The position numbers and the translations under genes were made by a program. Of a stretch of DNA of 64,000 bases, positions 7,496-44,000 are shown in pieces. Position 1 is the first letter of the stretch. Each line of letters opens with the position of its first letter. The notes under the pieces are model-generated. The model made no database searches and was not told where the DNA came from. It saw only the letters and a list, made by a program, of their open reading frames with translations. Source of the DNA: an uncultured Bacillota bacterium (GTDB lineage: Bacteria > Bacillota > Clostridia > Christensenellales > UBA1242); contig CASDUK010000003.1 in assembly GCA_949283975.1 (NCBI GenBank), positions 175,655 to 239,654 of the forward strand. The letters run 5' to 3'.

Positions 7496-10400
7496 GTGGC
7501 AAAAAGTTCCAAAGAGGTGGAAAAAAGTTTCAAAGTTGCTTTAAAGGGCGAGCGAGCGGGCTTTGAGGGAGGCGAAATTGAGGTTTTGTTTGCAGAGAGC
7601 AGTAACTATATCGTTGGCCCTGGCCAAGGAAAAGACGGGGGAGCAGTTGTTGAAATTTCCTTTGATAAAAGCGGCCGTAAGAAGGTTAAACTTTTAAATA
7701 TAGCTGGCGAATTAGATAAATTTGGTTTTGAGGGAAAAGACTATGCAGAATTTGATGCAAAAACAATTACAACCTTTCCAGATTCCCACATTTCAATCCA
7801 GATAGAAAATCCAAATGGAAAAATTTCAACTGTTACTGTTGGAGGGGCGGATATCATAATTAGCGGCAAAGAGAAAAACAAATCACAAATTAGTTTCGAC
7901 AAGCCGCTAAATGTTGAACTTTCTAATAACTATTTTAAAGACATTTCGGCTGGAAATATTAATGTAAAAGCATTTCCTCCTCAAATTTTTGATGCAATTA
8001 AAGGCCTTAATGGCGTTACTGCCAAAGAATTTACAATTAAAGGGAAGGCCGTTAGGTTGTTTGCGGTTGGCAAGGAAGGAGAGGCTCAAATTTATTGCGG
8101 TGTTTCAAATAAGTTTATAAAACTTGAAGAAATCTTTGATCTAGGCGCCGGTGAAGGTTATCACACCCTTGGTTTCCGTTTCCGCGCAGGAGAAAAGGGA
8201 AAGATTGGAAAATATAACGCAAGAATTGAAGGCGTTACAGGCCAAGAAGTTGCCGCGCTAATGGACTTTGTTAAAACTCAAGCTGGTGAAACATTTGTTA
8301 AAACAGGTTCTCCGGGAATGCAAATTGGAGAGGCAAATTTAAATTTTAACCAAAAGCAAACCTCTCAAAAAATTGTTGATTTAACAAAGAAAGATTTAGA
8401 AGACGAGGAAAAGCTAAGGCTTAGAGAAGAGTCCGAGCGAAATAGGCTGGCCGCAGAAAAAGCCCAAGAACAAGCCGATAACGAAAGAGCAGAGAGGGAA
8501 AGGGCTCAGCAAGAAGCAGAACAAGCAAGACAAAAACAACAAGAGGCAGAAAACGAACGAGAACGTGCCCAAAGAGGGTTAGAAGAAGCTCAACAAAGCG
8601 CAGCGGCAAATAAGAATAAAATAATTGAACAAGATGCTACAATAGCGGAATTAAGCGCCAAGATAGCAGAGCTTGAAAGCTTGGGGCTTTCTGCCAAAGA
8701 GGTTCAGCGCTTACAAAACGAGCTTAACGCTAGAATTGAAGAACAACAAAAGAAAGAAGAAGAACTTAAACAAAGGGAAAAAGCCGTTGAGGAAGGGCAG
8801 GCTGCTTTAGATAAAGCAAGAAAAGAAGATGAGGAAAAGCGCAAGGCAGAAGAAAATGAAAAACGCGCGAAAGAAGCAGAAGAACTAAAGCAAAAAATTG
8901 AAACGCTTACAACATCTACTGGGAAATTAAAAGAGGCAAAAAGCAAGTATAGCGACAAATATAAAGCCTTACAAGCTAAGATAGAACGTGTTAAAGACTT
9001 GGCAAACCCAGAAAAGGCTGAGGAAGCAAAAGATGAAATTAAAAGGCTTAGGGCAGAAATAGATAGCAGTTATAACGAACTAGATAAACAATTTAATGAG
9101 GCTGAAGGTTTGGCGGAAGAAGTTAAAGAGGGACAAAAAGAAATTGAGAATCCGCCAACAGAAACGCCAGACGAAGTAAAAAACAACATTGAACAAGTTA
9201 AAAGCGAGGCAGAGGCCGCAGCAACGGAATGGGAAAAAGCAAAGGAGGATCAGTCAATGGATGAACTTAAAGAAGAAGTAGAGAATCTTCAAAATTTAGA
9301 GCAGCCTGAAAACGAAGAACAGCTTGAAAACGAAGAGCAACCCAAAAACGAAGAGGAGCTTGAAAGAGGAGAGCGCGTTATTCTTGGCCCGAGAGAAGAG
9401 CAAAACGAAGAAGAAAACCCTCAGCCGGAAGAAGATAAAAAACCAGAATCTCAAGAGGCTCAAGACAAAGAATCGCTAATTAAAAGATATGAAGAGCTTC
9501 TTCAAGAAACCCGAAAAAGCTTAGATCAACAAGAAAAAAATGTTTCGTTGCTAGCGCGCATGGAGAGCTTAATTGATGAACAGTTAAGCGACATAGGGCT
9601 TGAGAAAGGCGATGAAAGCCAAGAGGCTAAGCGCCAGGAATATGTTAAAGAGGCTTTAAGCTACTATCTAGAAAAAGGGCCAAACATCGACTCTGTCACC
9701 ACACCTGGTCTTGACAGCGACAAATATGACATCGGGAGGACAGAAGATGTAAGGCAGAGAATTAACGCTGGATTGGAAAACGGCAAAGAAAAGTTAATAG
9801 AGCAAGGCAAAGAACTTAAAGAACTTCGCGAAAAAATATTAGAAGCAGATCCGGAACAGCTTACATTTGATGATCGCGTGGCATATCGTGGAGTTATCAA
9901 AGGAATTGAAAATGCAACCGGAATAAACTTTACCCAAACCGAGCCGGGAAATTTTCAGCGTCAGCAAACAGAAATTAGGCAAGTTGACAATTTAACAGAA
10001 ACACAAAACTTTGCCCAAACCGAGCAAGAAAACCCTCAGCCGGAGCAAACGGAAATACAAAACCTTGCTCAAACCGAGCAAGAAAATCCTCAGCCGGAGC
10101 AAACGGAAACACAAAATCTTGCTCAAACAGGGCAAGAAAAGCCTCAGCCAGAGCAACAAGCGCAACAGCCGCCAGAAAACAACCCAGAAGAAGACAAGAA
10201 AGATGAAAAGAAGAAAAAACAGGCTTCGCCTGAACAAAGCGAATTCAAACGCGGCCAAGTTTGGCGCGGCGTTAAATATTCTCTCCTCGGAGCGCTTTGC
10301 GGGCTTTTGTTTGTTGCAACGCTTCTGCTTGGCCTTGCCGGAATGCTTCCAGTTTTCTTCATCTGTTTGGCAAGCACAATTGGCGCATGCGTAATTACAT

Positions 10401-12349: not shown

Positions 12350-12426
12350 GCGCCGCTAGCTCAGCTGGATAGAGCGTTGGTCTACGGAACCAAAGGTCAG
12401 GGGTTCGAATCCCTTGCGGCGCACCA
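12350..12426 (+). tRNA. tRNA-Arg (anticodon ACG), CCA encoded
   Basis: I folded the cloverleaf by hand. Acceptor GCGCCGC/GCGGCGC, D stem GCTC/GAGC, and anticodon stem TTGGT/ACCAA with loop CTACGGA (ACG at 12384-12386). The T arm is AGGGG-TTCGAAT-CCCTT, followed by A-CCA. Confidence 0.92.
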
Positions 12427-12565
12427 TCAAATTCCCTTTATTTTAAGGCAATCTAGCGATTTTGAGAGTCGCTAGATTTTTGTTTTAACCACAAAATTAT
12501 AAAATAATTTTTATAACAAATTCATTTTTAATTACCACAATCGGCAAAATATAAATAATACAATT
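12382..12565 (+). repeat. left copy of the 184-bp direct repeat (tRNA 3' 45 nt plus 139 bp), attL-like
   Basis: It matches 19550-19733 with 4 mismatches that I can see. Identity starts exactly at the first nucleotide of the anticodon loop. Confidence 0.85.
12453..12486 (+). terminator. terminator downstream of tRNA-Arg (duplicated at 19621-19654)
   Basis: CTAGCGA, a 9-nt loop, TCGCTAG, then ATTTTTGTTTT. Confidence 0.55.
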
Positions 12566-12626
12566 TAATTTTTATAACAAATTCATTTTTAATTACCACA
12601 ATCGGCAAAATATAAATAATACAATT
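12505..12626 (+). repeat. 61-bp unit duplicated in tandem (present once in the right-hand copy)
   Basis: TAATTTTTATAACAAATTCATTTTTAATTACCACAATCGGCAAAATATAAATAATACAATT occurs at 12505-12565 and again at 12566-12626. Confidence 0.85.
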
Positions 12627-12655
12627 TTCATCAAAAAAATGGTAAAATTTGGCGA

Positions 12656-12677
12656 TGTCTACGAATTGTCTACGAAT
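12656..12677 (+). repeat. 2 x 11-bp tandem TGTCTACGAAT (a third copy at 19339-19349)
   Basis: This is a perfect tandem dimer near the left island arm. A single identical copy in the same orientation lies 5 nt after the last cargo stop codon. Confidence 0.8.
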
Positions 12678-12687
12678 TTTTCCAAAA

Positions 12688-12776
12688 TTTATGCAAATTA
12701 TGTTTTGTGTTGTATCGTTTCACAATGTGTTTTATTGTATCGTTTTAAAAAAAATAAGGGCAGGAATTTTCTTCCT
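12688..12776 (+). repeat. scaffold repeat A, copy 1
   Basis: TTTATGCAAATTA-TGTTTTGTGTTG...AAAATAAGGGCAGGAATTTTCTTCCT recurs at 19738-19962, where a 134-bp insertion interrupts it. It contains a hairpin that reads as a terminator on the minus strand. Confidence 0.75.
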
Positions 12777-13056
12777 ACCCTAAATTTTTACATTTCTGCA
12801 TCTTGTTTTTTCTTTAATCTTCGCTTTTTCCCAGCTTTCTTTCAAGTTCTTCAATCTCATCATCAAGACTTTTATACTCGCTATTTTCTTCTTTATCTTC
12901 TTTTAAAGCACTGGCTTATAACACTTGCCGATTGCAATTTTGAAGAAAAGTCAAGATGACTATAAACAAGAATTTAAACTTATTTACAAAATTGTAAAAA
13001 AATATAGAAGAGTTTATTATTTTATATTTTAAATGTAGTATTTTATTAAAAAAATA

Positions 13057-13065
13057 TGTTATAAT
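13057..13065 (+). promoter_or_regulatory. extended -10 promoter element of the island operon
   Basis: TGtTATAAT lies 19 nt upstream of the ATG at 13084. The same ATGTTATAAT string precedes the ABC-F gene at 19997-20006. Confidence 0.45.
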
Positions 13066-13083
13066 CAAATTAATGAGGTCAAT

Positions 13084-13599
13084 ATGAAAGATTTTTATAC
13101 TGATATAAGTAAATTGAAATCCGTATTGCGACGAGGTTGGTTGTTTCGAGATTTTAAAATTGATAGGATAGAAAGTGATGCTGAGCATACATATTCCATG
13201 TTGATGTTGGCGTTTTATTTTTTTTGTAAAAACAAACTAAAAAATTTAGATTTTATCAAAATTATGAAAATGATTTTGTGCCACGATTTGGGAGAAATAG
13301 AGATTGGTGATATTACTCCTTTTGATAATTATGACATTAAGTTAAAACATAGTCAAGAACAGAATGCCATAAGAACAATATTTGAAAAATATAAGTTGTC
13401 CGAACTTTTAAGTATTTGGCAGGAGTATAACGAACGTAAAACTCCTGAATCCAAATTTGTCAAGTTTATTGATAATTTGGATTATTTGTGCCAGGCAAAT
13501 TGTTATAAGAAAGATAATGCTAAACAATTTAAAACTTTATATGAAGAATGTTCAAAAAAGCATCCAGAAATAATAGAGGTTTTCAATGAAGATTTATAA
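13084..13599 (+). CDS. HD-domain phosphohydrolase, YfbR/HDDC2-like 5'-deoxynucleotidase family
   Basis: LKSVLRRGW...ESDAEHTYSM...LCHDLGEIEIGDITP...KFIDNLDYLCQA follows the HD_3 pattern (R-GW, ES-AEH, HD-xE-GD, D-l-qa). Confidence 0.7.
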   Translation: MKDFYTDISKLKSVLRRGWLFRDFKIDRIESDAEHTYSMLMLAFYFFCKNKLKNLDFIKIMKMILCHDLGEIEIGDITPFDNYDIKLKHSQEQNAIRTIFEKYKLSELLSIWQEYNERKTPESKFVKFIDNLDYLCQANCYKKDNAKQFKTLYEECSKKHPEIIEVFNEDL

Positions 13600-14080
13600 T
13601 TCTTTATTTAGCGAGGTGATAAATTTATTAAAATCTAAAACTAAATATGATGTTTATGTGGATATGGATGGGGTAATATGTGAGTATAGATACGGAGAAG
13701 GAGTTAAAATATTAAATGGAGAAACATCGGTTTATAGCGAGAAAAGACCTATTCAATCAGTCATAAAATTAATAAAGAAATATTACAAAAGAAATAATTT
13801 TTTTATATTAACTTCATGTATTCACAAACAGCAGATAAATGCAAAAAAAGAATGGATAAAAAAATATATGTCTTTCTTTAACATAGACAATGTTTATTGT
13901 ATCCTTAGCGAAGATTTTAATAAAAGAATTGAATATAAAGTGGATTTTATAAATCAATCATTGAAAGATAGAAAGACATATTCAATTTTGATTGAAGACA
14001 CGCATGAAATATTAAAAAAATCTTGGGAGAATAACAGAAATCAATTACTACCTGTTTTGGTTATAAATTTAATAAAGTAG
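13586..14080 (+). CDS. HAD-superfamily 5'(3')-deoxyribonucleotidase-like protein (NT5C family)
   Basis: VYVDMDGVICEY is a DxDG nucleophile motif and LIEDT lies near the C-terminus. At 164 aa it has the size and layout of NT5C/YorS-like proteins. It overlaps the upstream gene by 14 nt. Confidence 0.5.
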   Translation: MKIYNSLFSEVINLLKSKTKYDVYVDMDGVICEYRYGEGVKILNGETSVYSEKRPIQSVIKLIKKYYKRNNFFILTSCIHKQQINAKKEWIKKYMSFFNIDNVYCILSEDFNKRIEYKVDFINQSLKDRKTYSILIEDTHEILKKSWENNRNQLLPVLVINLIK

Positions 14081-14089
14081 AGGTTGAGA

Positions 14090-15589
14090 ATGAAAAATTT
14101 AATTATTGATTGTTATACAGATGAACCTTCCGGTTTAGGAGCCCCTCCATATTTAAGTGTGCATTCAAGATATTTGGCTGGTGCACTTAAATTTACGAAT
14201 CAAGAATATGAATACATAAACATAGATGATTTAAGATTTGCAAGTGGTGAAGAGCTTTGGAATGATAACACATTAAATAAAAGAGTAATAAATCACACAA
14301 AGGAAATTACAGAGACTGAGAATATTTTGTTGTCTGCTGAAAGAATATTTGTAATTATGGGTTGTTTTGTTGATTATAGTTATTTATCTTGTGAACCGCC
14401 AACTTTTACTGAGATTGAAAAATTATTATCTAGCTATAGAAATAAAGAAATCATTTTAATGTATGCGCTTGGTTCTAAAATAATTTCAAAAGAAGAATTA
14501 GATAAGACATTGCCGAAAAATTTATTTGATAAAGTGATTTTTGGCAATTTCTATAATTATATTTTGTTTGGCAATGAAAATGATTATCTGCCACATTATG
14601 AAGCTTTAAGCAAGATTTCTGTCTGTTCTGCTGATATTGTTAAAAGATTGCCTCGTCCACTTATCTATGAAATTGAGACTGCTACTGGTTGTAATCGAAA
14701 ACCAGGATGTAAGTTTTGTATAGAAAGCATTAGAGGAATAAACCATACATCAAGACCTGTCGATGATATTGTTGCTGAAATGAAGTCTCTTTACAGCGAA
14801 GGTGTGCGATATTTTAGATTGGGCAGACAACCCAATTTTTTCGCTTATTTTAATGCATTACCTAATAAAGTTGAAGAATTATTTCAAAAAATTTGGACAA
14901 ATTGTCCTGAAATCAAAGTATTACACATCGACAATGTAAGTCCTCACAATGTAAATACATCTTCTGGGAAAAAGATAGCAGAAATTGTTGCAAAATATTG
15001 CACCAGCGGTAATATCGCACCTTTTGGTGTAGAATCTTTTGATCCAAAAGTGCGAAGTATTAATAATTTAAACGGTTCTGTAGAAGACATAATGAAGTCC
15101 ATTGAAATTATAAATGAAATTGGAAGTAAAATTACCGATGAGGGGACAAGACAATTTTTGCCTGGAATTAATATAATTTATGGTTTGGAAGGTCAAAGTG
15201 AAAACACTTTACAATATAATTTAGAGGCCTTTTCTTATATCCTTGAGCATTATTATGTTCGAAGAATTTTTGTAAGGAACTTAACTTCTCCACATGGAGA
15301 GCTGTTTGGAGAAAAACAAAAAAGTGGCTTTGAAACTTTTAAAACGAAAATTGTGGACAAATTTTCATTACCAATGTTGAAAAAAGTTTATCCTATGAAC
15401 ACAATTTTAAAACATGAAAGAGTTGAGATGGTAATAAATGGTGATAGCATATTAAGACAAATGGAGACTTGTCCTGAAAGAGTTGTTATAAAAAATAAAA
15501 TATTAAACTTAGACGATTTTTACACTATTAAAATTGTAGGATACATATCTGATAGAGTCCTTATGGGAGAAATAATATGCAAAGAATAG
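14090..15589 (+). CDS. large radical SAM enzyme with an N-terminal Rossmann/B12-binding-like domain and non-canonical CX5CX2C spacing
   Basis: The ATG at 14090 follows AGAGG. ETATGCNRKPGCKFCIES sits at about aa 200, followed by RYFRLGRQPNF, APFGVESFDPKVR and PGINIIYGLEGQSE, which follow the radical SAM core order. The product is 499 aa. Confidence 0.65.
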   Translation: MKNLIIDCYTDEPSGLGAPPYLSVHSRYLAGALKFTNQEYEYINIDDLRFASGEELWNDNTLNKRVINHTKEITETENILLSAERIFVIMGCFVDYSYLSCEPPTFTEIEKLLSSYRNKEIILMYALGSKIISKEELDKTLPKNLFDKVIFGNFYNYILFGNENDYLPHYEALSKISVCSADIVKRLPRPLIYEIETATGCNRKPGCKFCIESIRGINHTSRPVDDIVAEMKSLYSEGVRYFRLGRQPNFFAYFNALPNKVEELFQKIWTNCPEIKVLHIDNVSPHNVNTSSGKKIAEIVAKYCTSGNIAPFGVESFDPKVRSINNLNGSVEDIMKSIEIINEIGSKITDEGTRQFLPGINIIYGLEGQSENTLQYNLEAFSYILEHYYVRRIFVRNLTSPHGELFGEKQKSGFETFKTKIVDKFSLPMLKKVYPMNTILKHERVEMVINGDSILRQMETCPERVVIKNKILNLDDFYTIKIVGYISDRVLMGEIICKE

Positions 15590-16179
15590 CTATCATCATT
15601 CCATTTTTCAACATGGCGGCTGAATATGAACTACAAAGGAAGATTAAAAACAAAAATTTATTCTATCAAATTTTTAAAATAGATTATAAAACCCATCAAA
15701 AAGAAGATGAAGAAAACTTTTATAATGAATTAAAAGCAAATCTTGAAACACTTATAAACAAGGTTGAAGCCTTACAATTTGATAAGATTATCTTGCTATG
15801 CTCATCTTTAAATTCAAAATTTAATTTTGAAATACTGGTGTCAATTAATGATATTGTGGCAACATTTATAAAAGAAAATAACCTTAATTATAAATTAGTG
15901 CTTTTATCTCCTTATTCTGAGAAAACAACCAAAGAAACAATAAAAGCATTTCATAATTTAGGTGTCTGTTTTAAAAGTGCTATAAATAACGAATTGCTAG
16001 GTTCAATCAATTACTTTAATTTTGGGAATAACATTGTACAATTTATAAAAGAACATAACCTTGAAAACGAAAAGATTTTCGTTAGTTGTACTAATATTCC
16101 CGTAATAGATGCACAAACAGAATTAAAAGATATAGTTTCATCAAACACAATTCTTATAGATTATTTAAATTCAATTTAA
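15577..16179 (+). CDS. Asp/Glu/hydantoin-racemase-fold protein (maleate isomerase / arylmalonate decarboxylase-like)
   Basis: IAIIIPFFNMAAEYE, IILLCSSLNS, LLSPYSEKTTKETIKAFHNLG and IFVSCTNIP...VSSN parallel the two-Cys maleate-isomerase pattern (IVPSSN, CTsGS, TPY, SCTN, SSN). Confidence 0.5.
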   Translation: MQRIAIIIPFFNMAAEYELQRKIKNKNLFYQIFKIDYKTHQKEDEENFYNELKANLETLINKVEALQFDKIILLCSSLNSKFNFEILVSINDIVATFIKENNLNYKLVLLSPYSEKTTKETIKAFHNLGVCFKSAINNELLGSINYFNFGNNIVQFIKEHNLENEKIFVSCTNIPVIDAQTELKDIVSSNTILIDYLNSI

Positions 16180-16190
16180 GAGAGGTTTAA

Positions 16191-16940
16191 ATGGAGAAAA
16201 GCAAGCTTGAAAAAATATTAAGCATTTTGGCGAATGATATAATGCTGCAGCAAGAAGTGAAAAATAATTTTACAAACAATTTATGGTGGCCAAGTACAGT
16301 TAAAGATAAACGACTTAGATTAATAATAGCGGGTTTATCTACAAGAATTTCTTATTCAATGATAGAAACATATAAAAAGGTTATAAATAACATCATTAGC
16401 AAAGGTTATGATAATTTAGTTTTATTGAACGACGAAGAAAAACTTGATATGATTAAACCACTTGGTCTTTCAACGACAAGATTAAATTATATAAATTCAA
16501 TGATTAAATTTATTTCTTCACATAGTGATTTAAATAACTTAAAAGATGATGTCTTTATTAAATTAATAAATAATGAAGTGACCGGGGCATCCTATAAAGT
16601 AGCTCAATGTTGTCTTCTTTATTATAAAGGATATCCTTGCTCAATTATGCCTGTTGATTCTGGAATGAAAGACGTGCTACTTCCTTGTTTAGGATACCCA
16701 AAACAAAAATCTGGAATTGGACATGAATTTGCGCGCTTATTATTGGAAGATGATGTATCTAAAATTGATAAAAAACAATTTATAAAAGAAAACAATTTAA
16801 ATATAACTGAAGAGTCATTTAATTGGTGGGCGCATCTATCTTTAATTTATTATAAAAGACAGCACTGTAACAAAAAAGACGCAAATTGTTCCTTACATAA
16901 AAATGGTATAGATTTAAAGGAGATATGTTTAGAAAAATGA
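16191..16940 (+). CDS. HhH-GPD-superfamily (DNA glycosylase-like) protein
   Basis: LIIAGLSTRISYSM...IKPLGLSTTRLNYINSMIKFI...VTGASYKVAQCCLLYYKGYPCSIMPVDSGMKDVL has the AlkA/Nth-like layout. That layout is a helical N-domain, a hairpin-helix element, then an Asp about 20 residues later. The tail is Cys-rich. Confidence 0.4.
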   Translation: MEKSKLEKILSILANDIMLQQEVKNNFTNNLWWPSTVKDKRLRLIIAGLSTRISYSMIETYKKVINNIISKGYDNLVLLNDEEKLDMIKPLGLSTTRLNYINSMIKFISSHSDLNNLKDDVFIKLINNEVTGASYKVAQCCLLYYKGYPCSIMPVDSGMKDVLLPCLGYPKQKSGIGHEFARLLLEDDVSKIDKKQFIKENNLNITEESFNWWAHLSLIYYKRQHCNKKDANCSLHKNGIDLKEICLEK

Positions 16941-17464
16941 TTATAATAGAAGGTTTGGATGGTGTAGGTAAATCTACAGTTGTTGAAAGGTTGAAAACAT
17001 TTGGTTTTATAAATCTGCATTATGATTACGATAGTTCCAATTCTGATTTGATACAAAAATATTTATTCATTTTAAATTATAACAATTTAGATAAATATAT
17101 TGCAGACAGATCTTTTTTTAGTGAAATGGTTTATGGTCCAATTTTAAGAAATGGAAGCAGAATCTCAGATGAGCAATTTATAAAATTATTAAAAGAGTAT
17201 TCTAAAATAGGAGCAAAAGTAATTTATTTAACCAGTGATAAAGATGTTTTATTAAAAAGGCGTCAAGAAGATGAAAAGGATTTTAAAACGCTTACTGATT
17301 ATTATTCAGAGTTAAATATTCAATATGAGAAAGTTATGAATATAACGGCGAAATTTATTCCCGTATTACATATTGATACAAGTGGAAAAAGTGTAGAACA
17401 AACCTTTAAGCAGTGTGAAGATTTTGTTTTTGGTGGCAAAAAAGATGATGAAAGAATTTTATGA
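16925..17464 (+). CDS. thymidylate-kinase-like dNMP kinase
   Basis: IIIEGLDGVGKST is the Tmk P-loop pattern and DRSFFSEMVYG parallels the Tmk DRY-xS-xAYQ motif. The product is 179 aa. Confidence 0.65.
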   Translation: MFRKMIIIEGLDGVGKSTVVERLKTFGFINLHYDYDSSNSDLIQKYLFILNYNNLDKYIADRSFFSEMVYGPILRNGSRISDEQFIKLLKEYSKIGAKVIYLTSDKDVLLKRRQEDEKDFKTLTDYYSELNIQYEKVMNITAKFIPVLHIDTSGKSVEQTFKQCEDFVFGGKKDDERIL

Positions 17465-18833
17465 TATTATTTTTGTCGGAAACACTTCAATAGACAAAAA
17501 ACAATGTGTTAATGGCAAATATGTCGAAACTTTGGGAGGTTCAGCATTTAATTCTTACTGTGCAACATTGGCGGTTGACAAACACCAAAACAACAAAATT
17601 TATAGTAACTTTTTAAATAATTTAAAATATATTAACTTGAATAATAGAATTTATAGTCCAAATTATTTTTATATAGATGAAAAACAGAATACTTGTTTAA
17701 GCGATATAAAATCCATAGTTAAATTGGAGAAGAACTTTAATTGTAGACATTTACATATTTCAATTCGAAAAGGAGTTGATTTTCGTTCTTTCTTAGATAG
17801 CAAAATAGAATATGAGACCTTATCTATTGATGTTATGATCCATAGCGTAAAAGATTATGTAGATGACATAAAAGAATTTGCAAGCAAAATAGACTTCTTG
17901 TTTTGCAATATGCAAGAATATGAGTTTTTAAAAAATATTGAAATTAAAGGCGTATTTATAATAACAAATGAGCAAAATCCAGTTGAAATTTATTATAACA
18001 AAGATAAAAATGATTATTATAATGTTCCAAAAATTAAAACTATAAAATCAACCACAGGCGCTGGCGATTCTTTTATTGGAGGCTTTTTATCTGAATATAT
18101 AAAATCTAAGAATATAGATATGTCTGTTGAGAGTGGTATTAAATGTTCACAAATATGCTTGAAGTTATACTCAAACGAACAGTTTAAAAACAAAAAAATC
18201 ACAAAAAAAACAGTAACATTTAAACTTCCTCAAAAAATTATTATCATAGGTCCATCATGTGCAGGGAAAAGTTTTGTAAGTAAAAAACTGCAAGAGAAAT
18301 GGCCTTTATACAAAATTTACGACGACCTTGAAGTATTGAAAGAAAGAGTTGATCTTGACAGTGGCTTAAGCCTTGGTGCAAATTTTCATTATTATAAGAA
18401 CCTTAAATTTGCTACACCAAAAACACAGAAAATGGAGAATGGCACTTTTAAAATTATTGACGAATCATTGTGGAAGGAAGTTATTGAAATAATTTGCAAA
18501 GTTTGCTCAAAATATTCTATAATTGAATTCTCAAGAGGTACAACTTCAAATTCAAAAGAAGAGCAACGGAAAGTTTATATTGAGTATATAAATTATATAG
18601 AAAATATCTTTAAAAATGATAAAATAATAGTTCTTTTTGTTGATAAAAATTATAAAAAAAGGCTTAAAAGAAATATAAAAAGGAAACAAACAGGTGGGCA
18701 TGAAGTAGATATTGAAACTTTTAAAACTTATTACAAATTTTCTTGCAAGCCTTCAAGTTATAAAAATATATTAAAAATAAATTCAAATTTGAATATAGAT
18801 AAGATAATAAAAAAGATAGGAGGAAAAATATGA
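17445..18833 (+). CDS. fusion protein: PfkB/ribokinase-like sugar or nucleoside kinase plus a C-terminal P-loop kinase-like domain
   Basis: The N-half has FVGNTSIDK, GGSAFNS and TTGAGDSFIGGFL (PfkB signatures). The C-half has IIIIGPSCAGKSFVSKKL (Walker A) with a lid-like basic segment. The start could be 17415, 17445 or 17448; I chose 17445 because GGTGG lies upstream. Confidence 0.6.
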   Translation: MMKEFYDIIFVGNTSIDKKQCVNGKYVETLGGSAFNSYCATLAVDKHQNNKIYSNFLNNLKYINLNNRIYSPNYFYIDEKQNTCLSDIKSIVKLEKNFNCRHLHISIRKGVDFRSFLDSKIEYETLSIDVMIHSVKDYVDDIKEFASKIDFLFCNMQEYEFLKNIEIKGVFIITNEQNPVEIYYNKDKNDYYNVPKIKTIKSTTGAGDSFIGGFLSEYIKSKNIDMSVESGIKCSQICLKLYSNEQFKNKKITKKTVTFKLPQKIIIIGPSCAGKSFVSKKLQEKWPLYKIYDDLEVLKERVDLDSGLSLGANFHYYKNLKFATPKTQKMENGTFKIIDESLWKEVIEIICKVCSKYSIIEFSRGTTSNSKEEQRKVYIEYINYIENIFKNDKIIVLFVDKNYKKRLKRNIKRKQTGGHEVDIETFKTYYKFSCKPSSYKNILKINSNLNIDKIIKKIGGKI

Positions 18834-19150
18834 ATTTAAATGAAATCCAAAAACAAATATGGAACAATAAAGTGAAAAAAGGGTTTAACACAACAGATGT
18901 ATGCAAGGAATTTTGCTTTTTGAATGGAGAAGTTGCCGAAGCTTTTGAGGCTTACCATAAAAAGAAAAGTAAAGAGGAATTGGGTTCTGAGCTTGCTGAT
19001 ATTGCTATATATTTGTTAGGCTTATCAGAAATGCTAGGATTTTCATTGGAAGATGAAATTAATACAAAGCTGAAAATAAATGAAAACAGAGTATATCAAA
19101 ATATTAATGGTGTGATGTTAAAAAAGGAAAATAAAGATGATAATGGCTAA
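18830..19150 (+). CDS. MazG-like all-alpha nucleoside triphosphate pyrophosphohydrolase
   Basis: GEVAEAFEAY...ELGSELADIAIYLLGLSEMLGFSLEDEI follows the MazG EExxE/D pattern. The product is 106 aa, with an ATGA overlap to the upstream gene. Confidence 0.6.
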   Translation: MNLNEIQKQIWNNKVKKGFNTTDVCKEFCFLNGEVAEAFEAYHKKKSKEELGSELADIAIYLLGLSEMLGFSLEDEINTKLKINENRVYQNINGVMLKKENKDDNG

Positions 19151-19334
19151 GTTAATAGAGAAACAAAACGATAGACTTATTTTTATAACATTAGACAATA
19201 AAAAAATTATAACTTCTTATATAAACTCTTTAAAAATAGGAGAAGATTATATTTTTCAAACATCTACATCTGGATATTCTAAAATAAGCGATTCTAAAGG
19301 TAACATTTTTAATGTGTTAATTTTACCTAATTAA
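19137..19334 (+). CDS. small hypothetical protein (65 aa), last gene of the island operon
   Basis: It overlaps the MazG-like gene by 14 nt, follows AAGGAAA, and shares the operon's strand and composition. I recognise no motif. Confidence 0.4.
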   Translation: MIMAKLIEKQNDRLIFITLDNKKIITSYINSLKIGEDYIFQTSTSGYSKISDSKGNIFNVLILPN

Positions 19335-19400
19335 CAAATGTCTACGAATTTGTGTTTGATTTTTGCAAAGTTTATGAAAATTGTGCCGTTTTGTGATGTG

Positions 19401-19515
19401 TTTTTATGTTTTGTTTTTGTTTAATGTTGTATATTAAAAGACAAAGCCTATCCGCCTTATTTTATAAGGGCTATAGGCTTTTTATTAAATGATAAAACAT
19501 GATAAAAAATGGTGT
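19401..19515 (+). repeat. scaffold repeat B, copy 1 (contains the operon terminator at 19443-19484)
   Basis: TTTTTATGTTTTGTTTTTGTTTAATGTTGTATATTAAAAGACAAAGCCTAT...ATAGGCTTTTT...AATGGTGT recurs at 21756-21864 with scattered substitutions and short indels. The hairpin AAAGCCTAT/ATAGGCTTT is followed by a T-run. Confidence 0.75.
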
Positions 19516-19549
19516 AAAAATAGCAAATTATGGCATTTTAAAGTGTTTG

Positions 19550-19733
19550 CTACGGAACCAAAGGTCAGGGGTTCGAATCCCTTGCGGCGCACCACTAAAT
19601 TCCCTTTATTTTAGGGCAATCTAGCGATTTTGACAGTCGCTAGATTTTTGTTTTAACCACAAAATTATAAAATAATTTTTATAACAAATTCATTTTTAAT
19701 TACCACAATCGGCAAAATATAAATAATACAATT
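19550..19733 (+). repeat. right copy of the 184-bp direct repeat; 19550-19594 is a displaced 3' half of tRNA-Arg (attR-like)
   Basis: CTACGGAACCAAAGGTCAGGGGTTCGAATCCCTTGCGGCGCACCA is identical to tRNA positions 12382-12426. No 5' half is present. Confidence 0.85.
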
Positions 19734-19737
19734 AGGC

Positions 19738-19962
19738 TTTATGCAAATTATATTATCGGAAGTCGAACTTGCTTGCAAGAGTGAGACTGATGGTTATACA
19801 TACTATGTGATGAGTGTGCGTAACACACAAATTCATTAGAATTGATAAAATTTTATGATAATAAAATTTTATCATCACATAGTCTATGTTTTGTGTTGCA
19901 TTATTTTGCGATGTGTTTTATTGTGTTGTTTTATAAAAAATAAGGGCAGGAATTTTATTCCT
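19738..19962 (+). repeat. scaffold repeat A, copy 2, interrupted by a 134-bp hairpin-rich insertion (about 19751-19884)
   Basis: The flanks align to 12688-12776. The insertion holds nested inverted repeats: ACTATGTGATGA/TCATCACATAGT, GTGTG/CACAC and GATAAAATTTTA/TAAAATTTTATC. Confidence 0.7.
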
Positions 19963-19997
19963 AATTATTCCTAGATATTGATGCTTTACAAAAATAA

Positions 19998-20006
19998 TGT
20001 TATAAT
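19998..20006 (+). promoter_or_regulatory. extended -10 element upstream of the ABC-F gene
   Basis: TGtTATAAT lies 24 nt upstream of the ATG at 20031, and RBS AGGAG lies between them. Confidence 0.4.
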
Positions 20007-20030
20007 GAAAAAGAGTTAGGAGTTATATTA

Positions 20031-21716
20031 ATGATTATTTTAGATGTAAATAAAGTATCAAAAAATTTTGGTTATGGTCAACTTTTTGAGAATCTTTCGT
20101 TTTCACTAAATGAAGGAGAGTCTATTTCTATAGTAGGACCTAATGGTAGTGGCAAGTCAACATTACTAAAAATGATAGCAGGACTTGAAAAAACAGATAG
20201 CGGTAGCATCAACATAAAGAAAGGTTATAAAGTTGCTTATTTAGATCAAACAGGTTCCAGCATAATAGATGATAGATGTGTGTATGATATTTTAAAAGAT
20301 GCTTTTTCAGAATTGAATAAGATGGAAGCACGATTAAACCAATTGCAAGATTTATTAAATGATACAAGTTTATCTGAAGAGCAGTATAACAATGTTATGG
20401 TAAAATATTGTGACTTAATGGAAAAATTTTCGATGGCTGGTGGCTATGATATTGAAACAAATATAAATACAATTGTTGAAGGATTAAAAATAGATAAAGA
20501 TATATTAAATCGTAGTTATAACGATTTGAGCGGTGGTGAAAAAACACTTATTCAACTTGCTAAAGCATTATTAATTAAGCCTGATTTATTTTTGCTTGAT
20601 GAGCCTACAAATCATTTGGACATTAATAGAATTGAATGGTTGGAAAGTTATATCAAATCTTTTAAAGGTGCCACAGTTATAGTTTCACATGATAGATATT
20701 TCCTTGATAAAATGAGTAATAAAATTTTAGAAATAGATACCCCCAATGTAAATTTATATTATACAAATTATACGGGTTATTTAGAAGAAAAGGAAAGAAA
20801 TTTTCAAAAAGCAATGGCAGACTTCAATTCACAACAATTATATTTTAAACGCCTACAGGAGCAAATTAACTATTTTGCAGATGTGGGAATGAACAGAAAC
20901 AGTTCTACAATGACAAAAAGAGCAGCTGTATTACAGGCAAGATTAGACAGAGAAAAAGCAAAGGCTTTAAAAAAACCAAAAGAACATAGAAGATTAAATA
21001 TAGGTTTTGATGAAGAACGAAAATCAAGTAAAAGAGTTATAGCAGTTGATGAGTTAGCCGTAACATTACCTAATGGGAAAAAAATACTTGACGGCATAAA
21101 TTTAAATATCTGTTCTGGCGAAAGAGTTGCTTTGATTGGAGCTAATGGTAGTGGCAAGTCAACATTTATTAAAACGATAATGGGGGAGCAAGACCTATCT
21201 ATAAAAGGCAATATTTTTGTGGGACCAAGAGTTAAAATAGGTTATCTGCCACAAATTATTAGTTTTCCTAACGATAATCAGACCCTTCTAGAATATTTCC
21301 AAGCTGAAAATGGAATTGCAGAACAAAGAGCAAGGCAAATATTAGCGGGATTTCAATTTTATAAAGAAGATGTCAATAAAAAAGTGAAAAATCTTTCAGG
21401 CGGTGAGAAAATAAGAGTAAAACTTGCTGAACTTTTACAACAAAAAATTAATACACTAATTTTTGATGAACCAACAAACCATATAGATATTCCTACAAAA
21501 GAGGTCCTTGAAGAAGCAATTGAAGATTTCGATGGAACTCTAATATTTGTTAGTCATGATAGATATTTTATCAATAAATTTGCCGATAAGACAGTAGAGT
21601 TTAAAGATGGAAGTATTGAAACTTATTTGGGCGGTTATGATGATTACAAAGTTGAAAAGGCTAATCGAGAAAAATTATTAAATAATAATGTTACAGAACA
21701 AAAAAAGAAAATATAA
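20031..21716 (+). CDS. ABC-F family ATPase (two ABC domains, no TM domain); possible ARE-type ribosomal protection protein
   Basis: Walker A is GPNGSGKST and GANGSGKST. The signatures are LSGGEKTLIQLAKALL and LSGGEKIRVKLAELL. Walker B is LLDEPTNHLD and IFDEPTNHID. A linker of about 100 aa joins the domains (YYTNYTGYLEEKE...RLDREKAKALKKPKE). Confidence 0.85.
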   Translation: MIILDVNKVSKNFGYGQLFENLSFSLNEGESISIVGPNGSGKSTLLKMIAGLEKTDSGSINIKKGYKVAYLDQTGSSIIDDRCVYDILKDAFSELNKMEARLNQLQDLLNDTSLSEEQYNNVMVKYCDLMEKFSMAGGYDIETNINTIVEGLKIDKDILNRSYNDLSGGEKTLIQLAKALLIKPDLFLLDEPTNHLDINRIEWLESYIKSFKGATVIVSHDRYFLDKMSNKILEIDTPNVNLYYTNYTGYLEEKERNFQKAMADFNSQQLYFKRLQEQINYFADVGMNRNSSTMTKRAAVLQARLDREKAKALKKPKEHRRLNIGFDEERKSSKRVIAVDELAVTLPNGKKILDGINLNICSGERVALIGANGSGKSTFIKTIMGEQDLSIKGNIFVGPRVKIGYLPQIISFPNDNQTLLEYFQAENGIAEQRARQILAGFQFYKEDVNKKVKNLSGGEKIRVKLAELLQQKINTLIFDEPTNHIDIPTKEVLEEAIEDFDGTLIFVSHDRYFINKFADKTVEFKDGSIETYLGGYDDYKVEKANREKLLNNNVTEQKKKI

Positions 21717-21755
21717 CATAGATGATGAACGTTCATTATAAATAAGCATTCTACA

Positions 21756-21864
21756 TTTTTTATGTTTTGCTTTTGTTTGATGTTGCATATTAAAAGACAA
21801 ACCTATTTGCCTTAAAGGGTTATAGGCTTTTAATTAAATAATAAAATAAGATAGAAAATGGTGT
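21756..21864 (+). repeat. scaffold repeat B, copy 2 (hairpin partly degraded)
   Basis: It aligns to 19401-19515, and similarity ends at AATGGTGT in both copies. Confidence 0.7.
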
Positions 21865-37832: not shown

Positions 37833-38046
37833 TTTAATTTCCTTTTATTTTCAAATTTTAACAAAAAAGATTGTTTTATGCAAATTTAAAATCTAAAAAA
37901 GCAAATAATTCGCAATTTATTTTAAAAAAATTGTTTTTTAAGGCGAAAATGTTTTGATTTCGACACGAAAAGTATTATATTATATATAATTCTTAACCAG
38001 TGTTAAATAAATTCGAACTTTTTTGGAATATTAATTGGGAGGAAAC

Positions 38047-41000
38047 ATGAAAAAATTTTTGGGGATTGTAAGTTGCTTGGTTTTAATCTTAGTTGCAGGG
38101 GTAACTTTTGCCGCCTGCGGCCCATCTTCTTCGGGGATAACAATTTCTTCAAGCGAAACAGAACTTGAAATTGTTTTGGGTTCTGGCGAGGAAACCAAAA
38201 CTGTTGAATTCATCGTTGAGGGTTTTGGAAACGGAAGTGGCCAGTTAACTTTCAGCGTTGAGGAACAGGAAAAAAACACAATTTCTTGCACCCCAGAGTA
38301 CCAGGGAAACGGACGAACAACGCTAACCATAACTGGAAAGAATAGAGGAACGGCAACGATAACTGCAACTTCAATGCGGGGAAGCGTTAGCCATGTTATA
38401 ACAGTTAAAGTTGTTCAGCCAATAACGGGGTTGGCTCAGGCGGACGAATTTAAGGACAAACTTTATGCAATTAGCGGAAGTTCGCTAAACTTGTCGCAAG
38501 AAAAAATTTGGAAATATTCTCCCTCAAACACAAATCAGCGCGATTTGGTTTTTTCATTTGTTGGAGAAAGTCAGGGCTGCCGAATTGAAGATGGTAAATT
38601 AATTGTAGACCAAGATTGTGGCCTCTCAAGCGTTACAATCAGGGCAGAATCCGCCTTCAATTCTTCTGTTTACTGTGAAATTCCTGTTACAATTTTAAAT
38701 CCAATTGAAGTTGTTGCTCAAACGAACGGAAAAACAATCGTTGAAAATGTGACGGATCCTAACTCCCAGGTTTCAAACTTTTTTGAAATATTCCCAAGGG
38801 AAACTGAATATCAAAACAGTTTGACGATTACATTAATTATTAAGGCGGGAAGCGAGAGCCAAGCGCTGAATGTTGAAGATGTCTTTAGCTCTGGGGAAGA
38901 AAAGTTTGCTGCTCCTCAAACAGGTTACTATTTCGACAAAGCCTCCCAAACCCACAGATACACCTTTTTAATTCAAGCAAATTCTCAGGATGCAGGGAAA
39001 ATTGATTCTCTAACTTTCCGCGTTTCATACAGCGGATATGCAGCGGGGGAAAGCGAATATAACAGCAATTCAATCAACATAAATTTAAGTTCATATAACA
39101 AAGCCCTTCAAGTTGATGTAAACGGCCAAGCTGGGCAAGTTGAGGTTGATGTCTTTGAAAACTCAATCAACTTGGTAGACGGAGAAATTCTTGAAATTTC
39201 TCTTCTTCCAGGGAATTTAAAGTTAGATCAAAATTACATAATTCTTTGGGCGGAAGATTTTGAAAACCTTCCAATTTCGCTTTATAAACTTGATTCAACA
39301 AGAAGAAACTATATTTGCGTGTTTGGATATGACCAAAACGGAAATCCCGTTGGTTCAACAGGAAACGGAATTAGATATGCAAAAATCCAATCTGGAACGA
39401 AACTTTATGCATTTATTAACAACAACTATCAAGGGTTAACAGGAACTAACAAGCAATCAACAATCTATGCCCAAGCAGTTGAGTTTTGGAATTCGGAAAT
39501 CACTTCGAATGAAAGAGCTTTTACCACGATAGATTTTGTTATAAATCCAAATGCAAAGGATATCTTCCTTGCGCAGCCAAATGACCAAGGCGTTTTAGAG
39601 GCAGATAAGGACAATAAAACAATCTTTATTGAACTTGGGGAAACGGAAATTGCTTATATTGCAGTTGATCCAAGCACCTTTACAATTGGGGCAAACTCTG
39701 TTGTTACAATTGCAAATGAAAGCTTGGCAGAAATTGGCGAACTTGTTGAACATGCGGTTAGCGAAGACTTTGTTTTTGCAAAATTTGAAATTGTTGCAAA
39801 TAAAGTTGGTTCAACAACGTTAACCGTAACTTTGTCAGACGGAAAACAGGTTGACTTTAACCTTGTTGTTATAAGCCCGCTTGAAGAACTTGAAATGGGG
39901 CTTGAAAGCGTTGTTATTGGCGAAACAGAAATTGGAAGTGATATAGTTCCATACAGACACCTTCCAGACACAACGGTTATAGTTGGTGAAACAACGCCAT
40001 TTATTGCGCTTAACAAGCTTTCAATTTCCAACAACGGCGGGGCGGGAATTAGATTAACAAAAAATGCAACCCCTCAAACTGCGCAATACTATTTGAGTTA
40101 TAATTACTATGATTACACCTTTGAAAACGGAAAAGACATAAAAAATATAACGCTGGAAGACATAGACCTTGAAAACATAACCTTCAACACAACAAGTTCA
40201 ATAATTAACACCTCGCTTTTAGCAAACCAAACAATTGTAGAGGCGGTTAATTCTTCAACAGAAGGCGCTGTTTTGGTTAGAATTTCTGTCTATGCAATGG
40301 GCGCAGACGGCGAATATAGCGACCAGCCCGTTGGCTATTTCTATTATCTAATTGATTTCTTCATTCCAACAAGCGGGCTAACTCTTTCAAGCGGAACTCT
40401 TGAACTTTATACTTATGATACAATTGGTGACAAATTCCTTGTAAATAATGTTAGTCGTTCAATTGGAGAATTTTCTGTTACCGTTAACCCAGTTAACCAA
40501 GGTTTAACACCAACTTATATTAATAACTTAAAAATTTATGTAAACGGAAATTCCGTAAACATCATGGAGCGTTTTACAAATGATGTTTTATATCTATATT
40601 TTGACGGCTCAATTGCGTCAAGTCGAAACAACGCAGCGCTTGAAATTATTAGATCTTTTGAAAACAACACCTTTACTTTTAAGTTCCAAGCGCTTAGAAG
40701 AGAGGCAAACTACATTTTTGCAATGGTTCTTTCCGAAGTTGATGAATCTAAAACATTCACAGCTCTTGGAAGGATAATTGCAAAAGAAGCTGTTGAAATT
40801 AGCGACATTGAAATAATTAATGCAAACCAAGAAAGCCCAATTTATATAGAAAACGTTTTCCTGGCGCAAGAAGATTTTGAAAGCGAAGAGGCTTACTTAG
40901 AATATATTAATGATATTATAAATAATCCATATCAGTTGGAATTGGTTTATAACCTATATTCAAAAAATGGAAATGAAATAACAAATCCTTCGCTTGAATT

Positions 41001-44000
41001 TGAGGTTGAATATAATTTAATTTCTGGCGAACGAGAGTATTACACAGACATCAACGGAAACAAAATTAACTTTGTTCAAATAATTCAAGAAAACGGAAAA
41101 ACTTCTGTTAAAATTATTCGCGCGGCTTGGGACTATTCAAGTTATTATGAACTTTCTGAAGAAGAGCGCGCCGAAACAACTTTAGATAAACATAAAGTTT
41201 TGGTTGAATTTGGTGCAAATGCAACAATTTCAGTTTATCCAACTTCAAATTACTATAATGCATACAATGGCTGGAACGGCGAAGAGCCAATTGTTTCCAT
41301 TCCAATAACAGTTGCAGATGGAAAAACAAGCGAAACATCTCTTCAACTTTGGGATTTAGAAGACTTGGAGCTATTAAGACTTCATCCAGCGGCAAACTTT
41401 ACAATTATGGCCAACATCTCAATGGTTTCAGAGTCGAATAATAAAGTTCCAGAGGAGTTTTATGAAAATTATGCTCCAGTTGAGGAATTCTATGGAACGC
41501 TTAGGGGAGATCCTGGTTTTGCCGGCGGAGGCACAATGCCGCTAATAATTTCTGTTGCACCGCTATTTAAGAAAATTGCAAGCGGCGCAGTTGTTGAAAA
41601 CTTTAGTTATGTTGCGTTGGAGGTGTATGATGACGACTCTGTTTTTGACAGCACAAAGTTTGCATCAACAGTAAACGGCGAAACCTATCTTGGCGGGCTT
41701 GCAAACATCAACGATGGAACAATTAGAAACGTTGCAGCAATTGGCGAATATGCCGAAGATAACGATATTTATGCTGCCTCAATGTTCTCTGGCGCAAGGG
41801 TCTTTGCGGATGGAGAAAAAGCGCCAGCTGCTCAAGCAATAATTTTGTTTGTGGGAGTTAACACGGATTATGAGAACACCGGGGCTGCGCTTATTGAACT
41901 GCTTGAATTTACAGAAGTTCAAGCGGGCGAACTTGTTAGATACACCGGGTTTTTAGTTGGTTTAAACCGAGGAACAATTGAAATTACAGACACGTCAACC
42001 GTTAGCGGAATTGGGGCTGCGATACTTTTTGGCGCTAATGTTGGCGGAATTGTTGGAGTTAATGACACAACAGGCAAAATTGTTGGTTACAACTTCTATG
42101 GAAACGTAATTGGAACTGAAACTGCGGGCGGAATTGCCGCTTTAAACAAGGGCGAAATTAAAAACTGCAACATTTTAAATGGCGGAACTCATCTTTATGG
42201 AATTAATGTGTTTATTCTTGGAGAAGATGTTTACAGCTATGCCGAAGAGAAGGGAATTGACATTCAATTTGCCGCAGGCGGAATTGCCGCAATTAGTAAA
42301 GGCGGAAAAATTCAAGGCTGTAGCACAGAAATTGGAACTGGAACAAATCCGCCAGATTCTTCAATGGGAGAAGGGGGAGCTTTTGAAAAATTATTTGAAC
42401 CCGAACTTGGCTCAACAGTTTGGGGCAAAAGAGTTGCAAAAGCGGGAACTTACTACCTTAACCAAAAGGCGGAATATGATTTTAACGTTTTAGACAACGG
42501 AACTGTTTTAACCGGAACAATTAAGTTTTTACGCGGAGGCTCAAACGAAAACATTGAGGACATTTTAGTTGAGCTTCCAAAGCTTACAGAAGAAAATCCA
42601 TCTCACTATTTTGTAGCAAACGGAAGAGAATATAGAATTTATGTCGAATTTGGAACAAGCAGCTACATCAATGTTACAATTTATGATGTTACAGGAGGAG
42701 AAGAAACCTCGCTTAAATCACTTAGTATTTATAAGTATAATTCAACACATAGCGGCGAATTTGAAACTTTAGATGTCAACAAAATTGTTGTTTCAAGCGA
42801 CCCAATTTATTGCGGCGGGCTCGTTGGAATTCTTTCTGAAACAAAGCTTAGCCAAAGCTTCTTTGACGGAACTTTAGGCGTTAGAGATTCAAACAGCGGC
42901 GGGCTTGTTGGCTACTTGTATGAAAGCGCAGCGGAAGAGCCTTTGGTTGACAACTGCTACGCTGTTTTGGGATATGCAAATTCCTATGTTGAAAGAGCAA
43001 AAAACGCCGGCTACATATTGAGGCAGGGGCTTTTCATTTCCGGCGGTTCGCTTAATGAAATTAAATATTGCTATGTTTCCTCAAACAACACAACCTTTGG
43101 CCCAAGTTATAACGGAGAAGGCCGCGCAACGGGAAGCTTCCATTCGGCAATTGGATTAACATCTATTATTGATATTATAAACTACAACGGCGACTTTTTG
43201 GGCTTTGATATTACAGAGTGGGCGGACAAAACGTTCACAGACTTGGAAGGGCAATATACCTACATTGATGGAACGATGAGCGTAACACCTGAGAACACCA
43301 TTTTAACGGCAAGCTCTCAAATTGTTGGAGACACATATTACGGCAGCTTTGAAATGAGCTATTCGTTAACGAATCCAAATTATGGCGCTGGAAGCCTTAG
43401 TTTTACCATTCATAAAAACGGAACGGAACTTGAAAAGAAAACTGTTGAAATTAAAGATTTTGCTTTAGCAAACGGCTCTTCGGTTGACTACACCTTTGCA
43501 GATCTTGGAATTAAAGTTTCTTTAACCCCAGTGGATTTGAATGCGGCAACCTCCAGAGGGATAATGTTTGTTGCAACAGATGTTTCCAGCGGAGACACGC
43601 TTTATGAACAAAAAGTTACTGGTTGGGTGTCTTCGGGAACAAATAATGGCGTTGAATACGAGAGATATGAGGTTTCAAGCAGTTTTGGATTTAAAACTGT
43701 TGAAACAACAGTCAGCCACAATGGGCAAAACCAAGTTATTTCACGAAACCTTTATTCCTATCCAAACAGCTCTTCAAGCTATGAATTATATAGGTTTACC
43801 CACAACGGAAAAACACATGTTGTTGAACTGTCATCAAATGGCGCTCAAAGTTTTGAAATTAAAATTAAATATCAGCAATATGAATCATCAAGTTATTGGC
43901 CAGAACTTATAAGAGAATGGGTTGATGGCTCAAGTGAAACTAAAGCGGAAATTGAATTTGCAGAATCATATTCTATTGTTGCAAATTTAAATCTTTTCCC

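Follow-up and report, generated by a model that had tools for sequence, protein, structure and literature searches.

The question raised by this locus is how two consecutive cargo-bearing segments with the same flanking arms came to lie downstream of a single tRNA-Arg gene. The locus falls within a 64,000-nucleotide (nt) stretch of DNA from an uncultured Bacillota bacterium (Clostridia; Christensenellales; UBA1242; assembly GCA_949283975.1, contig CASDUK010000003.1, positions 175,655 to 239,654 of the forward strand). This whole stretch is called the window; coordinates refer to it unless another locus (L number) is named. A preliminary description reported that the order tRNA 3' half plus 139-bp arm, repeat A, cargo, repeat B occurs twice in a row, and we find all of these features at or near the positions it gave. 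It ascribed them to two related elements with conserved arms that integrated successively at the same tRNA, the distal one having lost its right attachment site (attR), and this part of the proposal stands. Very probably the region consists of two decayed elements in tandem, both without an integrase and both descended from a single family of integrative and mobilizable elements (IMEs) specific for tRNA-Arg. We refer to the two units as island 1 (12382-19549) and island 2 (19550-21864).

The tRNA-Arg(ACG) gene at the head of the array is the only one there, and its anticodon loop, CTACGGA, begins at 12382. A direct repeat of 184 nt starts exactly at this heptamer (12382-12565 and 19550-19733, with 180 of 184 bases, or 98%, identical) and reaches 139 nt beyond the end of the tRNA. 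The same position forms the junction in L010, L014 and L092, each of which has a host-specific tRNA 3' half. The start of the repeat and the tRNA 3' half that it contains place the islands among those integrated into tRNA anticodon loops by tyrosine recombinases. Their base composition is foreign, with a GC content of 25-30% across 13-22 kb versus 37-44% in both flanks; it is back up to 37% from 22 kb. The suggested check for a third attachment (att) core by relaxed matching was run over all 64 kb and found none: a 32-mer search allowing up to three mismatches returned two sites only, as did word-7 blastn, so that the tRNA fragment is indeed absent after the second B copy. In L006, the closest host relative (DinB 92% identical), the sequence past the tRNA consists of the tRNA's own terminator hairpin and then a host gene, and neither the arm extension nor the A repeat was found in the ~600 nt of contig beyond the tRNA. 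This is consistent with an unoccupied site.

Repeats A and B were compared by blastn with the dust filter off. The gapped alignment of the two A copies (12370-12777 against 19539-19963) is 77% identical with E=2.6e-84, and contains an ungapped core (12699-12777 = 19885-19963) of 87% identity; relative to A1, A2 has an insertion of ~133 nt and lacks ~61 nt. B1 (19401-19515) and B2 (21757-21864) are 84% identical (E=2e-28), and their likeness stops at the same sequence, AATGGTGT, in both copies, as first reported. The 34 bp at 19516-19549, directly before the second tRNA half, had been described as unique; they are conserved in L014. A and B had been listed as two separate repeats of a non-coding scaffold; both repeats are real, and A is partly homologous to B (12655-12754 against 19338-19438, E=3e-11). 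This partial likeness reflects what look like shared protein-binding motifs, putatively for the integrase (Int) or the excisionase (Xis). A-like and B-like sequence is kept across genomes at 85-89%. An A-core 22-mer occurs twice, and none of 100 shuffles reached two matches. A metagenome scan with an A-core 21-mer returned three loci, L086, L087 and L088, of which L087 is the sole true relative; the other two were set aside as chance matches, with no likeness outside ~22 nt. The A-core 21-mer and an arm 24-mer are both absent from IMG/VR viral contigs. Searched against Rfam at gathering and E-value thresholds, A, B and the A2 insert matched nothing but tRNA, and a reading of the scaffold as an RNA gene was dropped for this reason.

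The nature of repeat A became apparent from L087, whose host differs from that of the window and whose tRNA-Arg(ACG) is only 82% identical. Here the order is tRNA-Arg, arm, A module and then a complete leftward tyrosine integrase of 419 aa (PF00589, 4e-28; SAM_5), and the A module comprises a TGTCTACGAATTGTCTACGAAT pair, TTTATGCAAATTATG, a GT-rich block and a hairpin that is the integrase terminator. Past the integrase lie an HTH_17 excisionase (TIGR01764), a short integrase-like open reading frame (ORF), a MobL/MobP-type relaxase and HTH regulators, together with a ParB-like ORF that has a weak, below-cutoff match. Window positions 12553-12968 are 89% identical to L087 (E=6.7e-145), and no likeness was found between the two beyond the arm, A and the 3' end of int. 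Residues 361-419 of the L087 Int align at 12967-12791 by tblastn, with residues 378-405 being 89% identical. The preliminary description had missed this remnant, which comprises the last ~59 codons of an integrase gene, frameshifted and beginning just before the catalytic-Tyr motif VYSHLD. Only residues ~361-419 remain, and tblastn found no other integrase of the L087 family in the window. Given the order of arm and A in L087 and the int stump, A is the P' (attL-side) arm together with the end of the integrase gene and its terminator.

Repeat B can be assigned in a similar way. Positions 1-233 of L014, from a related Clostridia metagenome-assembled genome, are 85% identical to window 19362-19594, a match that spans the sequence before B1, B1 itself and the 34 bp; in L014 the B end abuts the host's own tRNA-Arg 3' half, followed by a host sugar-nucleotidyltransferase gene. 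L010 holds a 1.4-kb integrase-less element in which a full tRNA-Arg, the arm hairpin, a TGTGTTATAAT promoter and a single APH-family phosphotransferase gene (PF01636, 4e-12) are followed by a B-like module with ATGATAAAAAATGG and then an exact tRNA 3'-half repeat. L092 is a complete element of ~6.4 kb with Int, Xis, attL and attR. The tRNA halves at its two ends are 82% alike and identical only in the anticodon loop, which marks the crossover site there. No relaxase was found in L092. Motif offsets from the core are conserved across these elements (Table 1), those at -209, -190 and -51 of the P arm being common to the window, L092, L010 and L014. Taken with the attR junctions in L014, L010 and L092, these offsets identify B plus the 34 bp as the P (attR-side) arm. 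The short arm motifs are candidate binding sites for the integrase and excisionase. The shared scaffold is thus explained as attP arms, and two horizontally acquired islands are delimited precisely.

The extended -10 box TGTTATAAT, also counted as scaffold in the preliminary description, is present where it was reported in both islands (13057 and 19998) but is a generic consensus, with a third plus-strand copy at 51459. The island 1 copy is part of the cargo and not of the scaffold, because homology to L004 begins at 13015.

The family to which the arms belong is large. At E<1e-20 there are 7221 homologs of the L087 integrase; 120 integrase clusters among the matches listed are all 60-98% identical, one of them from Ca. 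Caccovivens. One identical integrase, P0137, occurs next to tRNA-Arg in several different host neighbourhoods; in the elements that carry it, the backbone genes stay the same (second recombinase, MobL, int-like ORF, Xis, Int) and the cargo changes, for example a methyltransferase and a helicase. Int, Xis (HTH_17) and a MobL relaxase are likewise found in L087, L089 and L094-L103, where the cargo beside the backbone varies. Cargo elsewhere in the family includes MmeI/Eco57I-type restriction-modification genes (L089, at tRNA-Arg(TCG), of which only the tRNA-side arm was seen), GyrI-like and Bro-N genes (L092) and helicase/methyltransferase genes (L094). No named or curated family was found for the integrase clade, for which NCBIfam gives only sub-threshold Xer-like matches; the closest solved structures are distant (3NKH, and the Tn1549 Int 6EMY, E about 1e-11 to 1e-12). 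Judged by their gene content, the relatives are ordinary and evidently mobile IMEs, and the family appears to be active and widespread. Integrases 66-73% identical to the L087 Int were also observed beside tRNA-Arg(TCG), not ACG (L089-L091, L093-L103), as though the target had switched between isoacceptors within a single integrase clade.

Against this background the two islands show graded decay. In island 1 both att sites and both arms are intact, and the hairpins are strong (-17.8 kcal/mol on the P' side and -16.6 kcal/mol on the P side). Pfam detected no Xis or relaxase domain in the ORFs of 12.3-22 kb, and island 1 would have lost int, xis and mob through a deletion that ended inside int. 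Excision of island 1 should depend entirely on cognate Int and Xis provided in trans. In island 2 the TCTACGAAT pair has been deleted from A2, nothing is left of the int gene, and the P arm has lost its last 34 bp together with the attR core. The terminator hairpin of its former integrase gene has decayed (-7.5 versus -17.8 kcal/mol in island 1), the hairpin on its B2 side is weak (-8.4 kcal/mol), and neither differs from shuffled sequence; island 2 is most simply seen as an immobile fossil.

We propose that the array arose by decay and accretion. The family tyrosine integrase would insert the element into the tRNA-Arg anticodon loop, and because the element carries its own tRNA 3' half and tRNA terminator, integration would rebuild the tRNA gene. 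A first member of the family would have integrated at this position and then decayed. A second, related member would subsequently have entered the rebuilt tRNA and, like the first, shed its module for recombination and transfer, so that the proximal island would be the later arrival, while cargo would vary by deletion and replacement at irregular junctions. A three-step model of integration, decay to a cis-mobilizable element (CIME) and accretion has been described for Firmicutes, and decay with tandem accretion is described in streptococcal and Faecalibacterium elements (PMC5704250, PMC12084326). The locus is an example of this known model in an uncultured, spore-forming gut Clostridia lineage and involves no new mechanism.

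Several observations weigh against this proposal. The copies of the 184-nt repeat are 98% identical versus 87% for A and 84% for B, a difference not expected from independent arrival by itself; either gene conversion or an origin by recombination has to be invoked. The 98% identity suggests gene conversion between the direct repeats. L002, a locus from another sample, lends indirect support: its full tRNA is followed by an arm of the copy-2 type, 100% identical to that of the middle att and free of the 61-bp duplication seen in the first arm of the window. This tandem duplication is not in the second arm copy and apparently not in L002 either, and it moves the TCTACGAAT pair from ~+215 to +276, which could impair recombination. 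No relaxase or oriT was found in either island (relaxases were sought with Pfam; oriT was not searched for). The window holds no intact integrase of the family, and present-day mobility of island 1 is a prediction. The exact empty site of the same species was not recovered. Synteny downstream of the islands is not kept in relatives, and the host proteins of 198, 275 and 565 aa encoded there had no homologs near dinB/tRNA-Arg in relatives.

Among known systems, the decay-and-accretion model has its closest counterpart in the ICESt1/ICESt3-CIME arrays of Streptococcus thermophilus, for which, as far as the account in PMC5704250 goes, CIMEs and tandem accretion were described (Pavlovic 2004, Bellanger 2011). 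As in those arrays, island 1 shares its target gene with an adjacent, related element that has decayed, is derived from an intact relative by internal deletion (the int stump) and carries adaptive cargo. The target here is the anticodon loop of tRNA-Arg in gut Clostridia, whereas the streptococcal targets are fda or tRNA-Lys, and the parents are IMEs with a MobL relaxase whereas the streptococcal parents are integrative and conjugative elements (ICEs). Neither island of the window has functional integration, excision or transfer genes, and the 89% identity to L087 at tRNA-Arg(ACG) marks derivation by deletion from an IME with the same att. Island 1 has both attL and attR (cores at 12382 and 19550) and is CIME-like, with cis-mobilization predicted; island 2 lacks attR and is therefore a remnant and not a CIME.

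The IMEs of Firmicutes (PMC5704250, PMC5357655, PMC12084326) resemble the intact relatives in having Int, Xis, a relaxase and variable cargo, and often occur in tandems with remnants. The islands of the window differ from them in encoding none of these three proteins: an own integrase is present in L087, L092, L089 and L094, and a MobL relaxase in L087, L089 and L094, whereas the ORFs of the window contain no relaxase domain and oriT was not searched for. Neither island is a prophage or phage satellite, since PHROGs gave only generic nucleotide-enzyme matches and the sequence patterns of the arms are absent from IMG/VR.

A class of genomic islands at the anticodon-loop sublocation of tRNA genes is said to have been recognised by Williams in 2002. 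The islands of the window fit this class: the 7-nt anticodon loop is where the repeat starts, and the entire tRNA 3' half, with sequence beyond it, comes from the element. They differ in that the copy runs through the tRNA terminator and ~90 nt more, giving the repeat of 184 nt.

It is worth asking whether the integrase-less units (the 1.4-kb APH unit of L010, the 2.3-kb ABC-F unit and the 7.2-kb operon unit) form a functional class and are not mere debris, which we consider unlikely. Were it so, abundant tRNA-Arg integrases would shuttle and stack minimal promoter-plus-cargo modules with full attP arms in trans, in effect an integron-like, tRNA-anchored cassette system in gut Clostridia. Another reading, the cargo-exchange platform of the preliminary description taken as a dedicated system, would make A and B recombination sites that swap promoter-plus-gene cassettes with an integrase acting in trans. 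Cargo does change within the same arms, as that description anticipated: the arms surround the nucleotide operon and the ABC-F gene in the window, the APH gene in L010 and the GyrI-like/Bro-N genes in L092, related tRNA-Arg(TCG) elements add restriction-modification (L089) and helicase/methyltransferase (L094) cargo, and integrase-less units as small as 1.4-2.3 kb each have their own promoter. However, the cargo boundary of island 1 falls inside int (12968/13015) and that of island 2 just after the int terminator, while L089 has four genes separating int from A. In L004 and L005 the operon occurs with neither A nor B, the intact members of the family are IMEs of the ordinary kind, and the anticodon-loop core is the only recombination site for which there is junction evidence. 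We therefore regard a platform distinct from classical integrative elements as quite improbable. The likeness to integrons is superficial. Both have tandem cargo units bounded by repeated non-coding sites and need an integrase in trans, but the window has no IntI-type integrase (nor any intact integrase of the L087 family), attI, attC or Pc promoter; each unit has a promoter of its own, recombination takes place at a long-armed tRNA core, and the cargo junctions are irregular, so that this is not a gene cassette array.

The high identity of the 184-nt copies, well above that of A (87%) and B (84%), could also be read as the trace of a segmental tandem duplication of the tRNA-arm-A...B block whose interior was then replaced, with no second site-specific integration, and L002 does show arm variants recombining between positions. 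Such an origin is very unlikely, as the repeat starts exactly at the anticodon loop, where family members in other hosts also have their junction, the stretch formed by B1 and the 34 bp corresponds to the attR end in another species (L014), and the A and B copies are 13-16% diverged, as would be the case for two different family members and not for a recent duplication. Finally, although the region is 70-75% AT and has blocks with T/G runs, the notion that the A/B likeness is a coincidence of AT-/GT-rich low-complexity sequence can be dismissed given the three E-values above, the shuffles that never reached two A-core matches and the 85-89% conservation across genomes.

Reading the repeats as decayed IME arms has two practical consequences. 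A very widespread tRNA-Arg IME family of uncultured gut Clostridia is seen to carry an ABC-F gene that is probably of the ribosomal-protection (antibiotic-resistance) type, and an APH-family gene in one relative. In addition, the attP motif map (the TCTACGAAT pair, TTTATGCAAA, and ATGATAAAAAATGG at -51) could reveal decayed members that integrase-based tools miss; an example of a gapped pattern for such scans is ATGRTARAAAAYGG N{28,40} CTACGGA plus the tRNA-side arm.

Table 1. Features of the tRNA-Arg locus, with arm motif offsets relative to the att core (window coordinates unless another locus is named)
Feature	Position	Strand	Evidence or remark
tRNA-Arg(ACG)	12350-12426	+	ARAGORN; Rfam RF00005, 65.8 bits; integration target, forms attL of island 1
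att core copy 1 (tRNA 3' half)	12382-12426	+	left edge of 184-nt direct repeat
P' arm, island 1 (139-bp arm and repeat A)	12427-12781	+	12553-12968 89% identical to L087; motif offsets
tRNA terminator hairpin, island 1 P' arm	12450-12478		
61-bp tandem duplication, island 1 P' arm	12493-12626		
TGTCTACGAATT pair, island 1 P' arm	12656-12678		
TTTATGCAAA, island 1 P' arm	12688		
GT-rich block, island 1 P' arm	12699-12746		
Integrase terminator hairpin, island 1	12757-12781	-	
Tyrosine integrase remnant	12791-12967	-	tblastn with L087 Int
Cargo 1 with own promoter (TGTTATAAT at 13057)	13015-19334	+	Pfam; L004 homology
Nine-ORF operon	13084-19334	+	Pfam
P arm, island 1 (attR side)	19336-19549	+	85% identical to L014 1-188; motif offsets
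TGTCTACGAATT, island 1 P arm	19339-19350		
TTTTTGCAAA, island 1 P arm	19336-19549 region		
Repeat B1	19401-19515		hairpin ~19443-19481
ATGATAAAAAATGG, island 1 P arm	19499		
Middle att: tRNA 3' half copy 2 (19550-19594) and proximal P' arm of island 2	19550-19733	+	hairpin 19618-19646
Decayed distal P' arm, island 2 (repeat A2)	19734-19965	+	alignment, motif scan, fold energy
Structured insertion in A2, ~133 nt	19752-19884		
GT-rich block in A2	19885-19932		
Cargo 2	19978-21716	+	promoter TTGATG, 17-nt spacer, TATAAT, with TG (promoter scan)
ABC-F gene, 561 aa	20031-21716	+	Pfam; NCBIfam NF000355
Truncated P arm, island 2 (repeat B2)	21757-21864	+	ends at AATGGTGT; host sequence resumes 21865
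P' arm motif: TCTACGAAT pair, 11 nt apart	+213 to +238 from core		
P' arm motif, island 1: TCTACGAAT pair	+276/+287		+215/+226 without 61-bp duplication
P' arm motif: TTTATGCAAA	about +245		
P arm motif: TCTACGAAT	-209 / -208		
P arm motif: TTTTTGCAAA	-190 to -174		
P arm motif: ATGATAAAAAATGG	-51		
Pseudo-tRNA pieces	L006 11903-11970; L087 ~9320-9395; L092 12341-12424; L019 ~18844-18880; L010 ~19960-19995; L093 2918-3171		

The cargo of island 1 is arguably a more intriguing object than the islands themselves. Genes 1-5 of the operon encode an HD_3 protein, a 164-aa HAD/PNK-phosphatase-like protein, a 501-aa radical SAM protein and two unknown proteins of 200 and 249 aa; genes 6-9 encode a dNK/dTMP-kinase-like protein, a fusion of PfkB with a P-loop kinase, a MazG-like protein and a 65-aa protein. 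Taken together, this radical-SAM/nucleotide-kinase gene set may constitute a modified-nucleotide pathway. Beyond the single domains, the nine-gene operon matched no named family or defence system, and PADLOC called no defence system for the cargo. The radical SAM protein has 1015 homologs, including some in Dojkabacteria of the Candidate Phyla Radiation (CPR), Lachnospiraceae and Bacilli. The L004 operon matches that of the window at 96% identity from 13015 on and lies beside AAA, S8-peptidase and DUF4062 genes, and L005 has the same nine genes; no A or B repeat was found at the operon in either. The occurrence of many ~7-kb contigs with the radical SAM gene had raised the idea of a circular 7-kb element, which was dropped as the contexts in L004 and L005 differ and show no att, A or B.

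The ABC-F protein of island 2 scores 457.7 bits against NF000355, above the 380-bit cutoff, and is ribosomal-protection-like. An ABC-F gene whose protein is 73% identical to it also occurs in L010 (16573-18210), immediately outside the attR of the mini-element and on the opposite strand. ABC-F is there found again at this tRNA-Arg locus, but not within the same arms. The A2 insertion, whose fold was tested on 19790-19890 (+), folds strongly, with several hairpins (-31.2 kcal/mol, z=-5.45). A homolog that is 74% identical lies at 3861-3956 of L012, where stem changes are apparently compensatory; Rfam gave no match for the insertion.

One further island was observed at the same anticodon-loop position of tRNA-Arg(ACG), in L019 (10025-18608; 8.6 kb, bounded by a tRNA 3'-half repeat). 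It was rejected as a member of the present family because its 465-aa integrase is unrelated (27% identity) and its arms differ. It marks the anticodon-loop site of tRNA-Arg(ACG) as a hotspot for integration in this lineage. One or more pseudo-tRNA pieces also lie just upstream of the real tRNA-Arg in each of several relatives (Table 1), every piece consisting of the tRNA-Arg 5' half up to the anticodon loop and then unrelated sequence. The window is without the corresponding ~92 nt of this region, as if deleted between two cores. Away from the islands, the window also contains a single giant ORF of 6475 aa at 38035-57462 (+).

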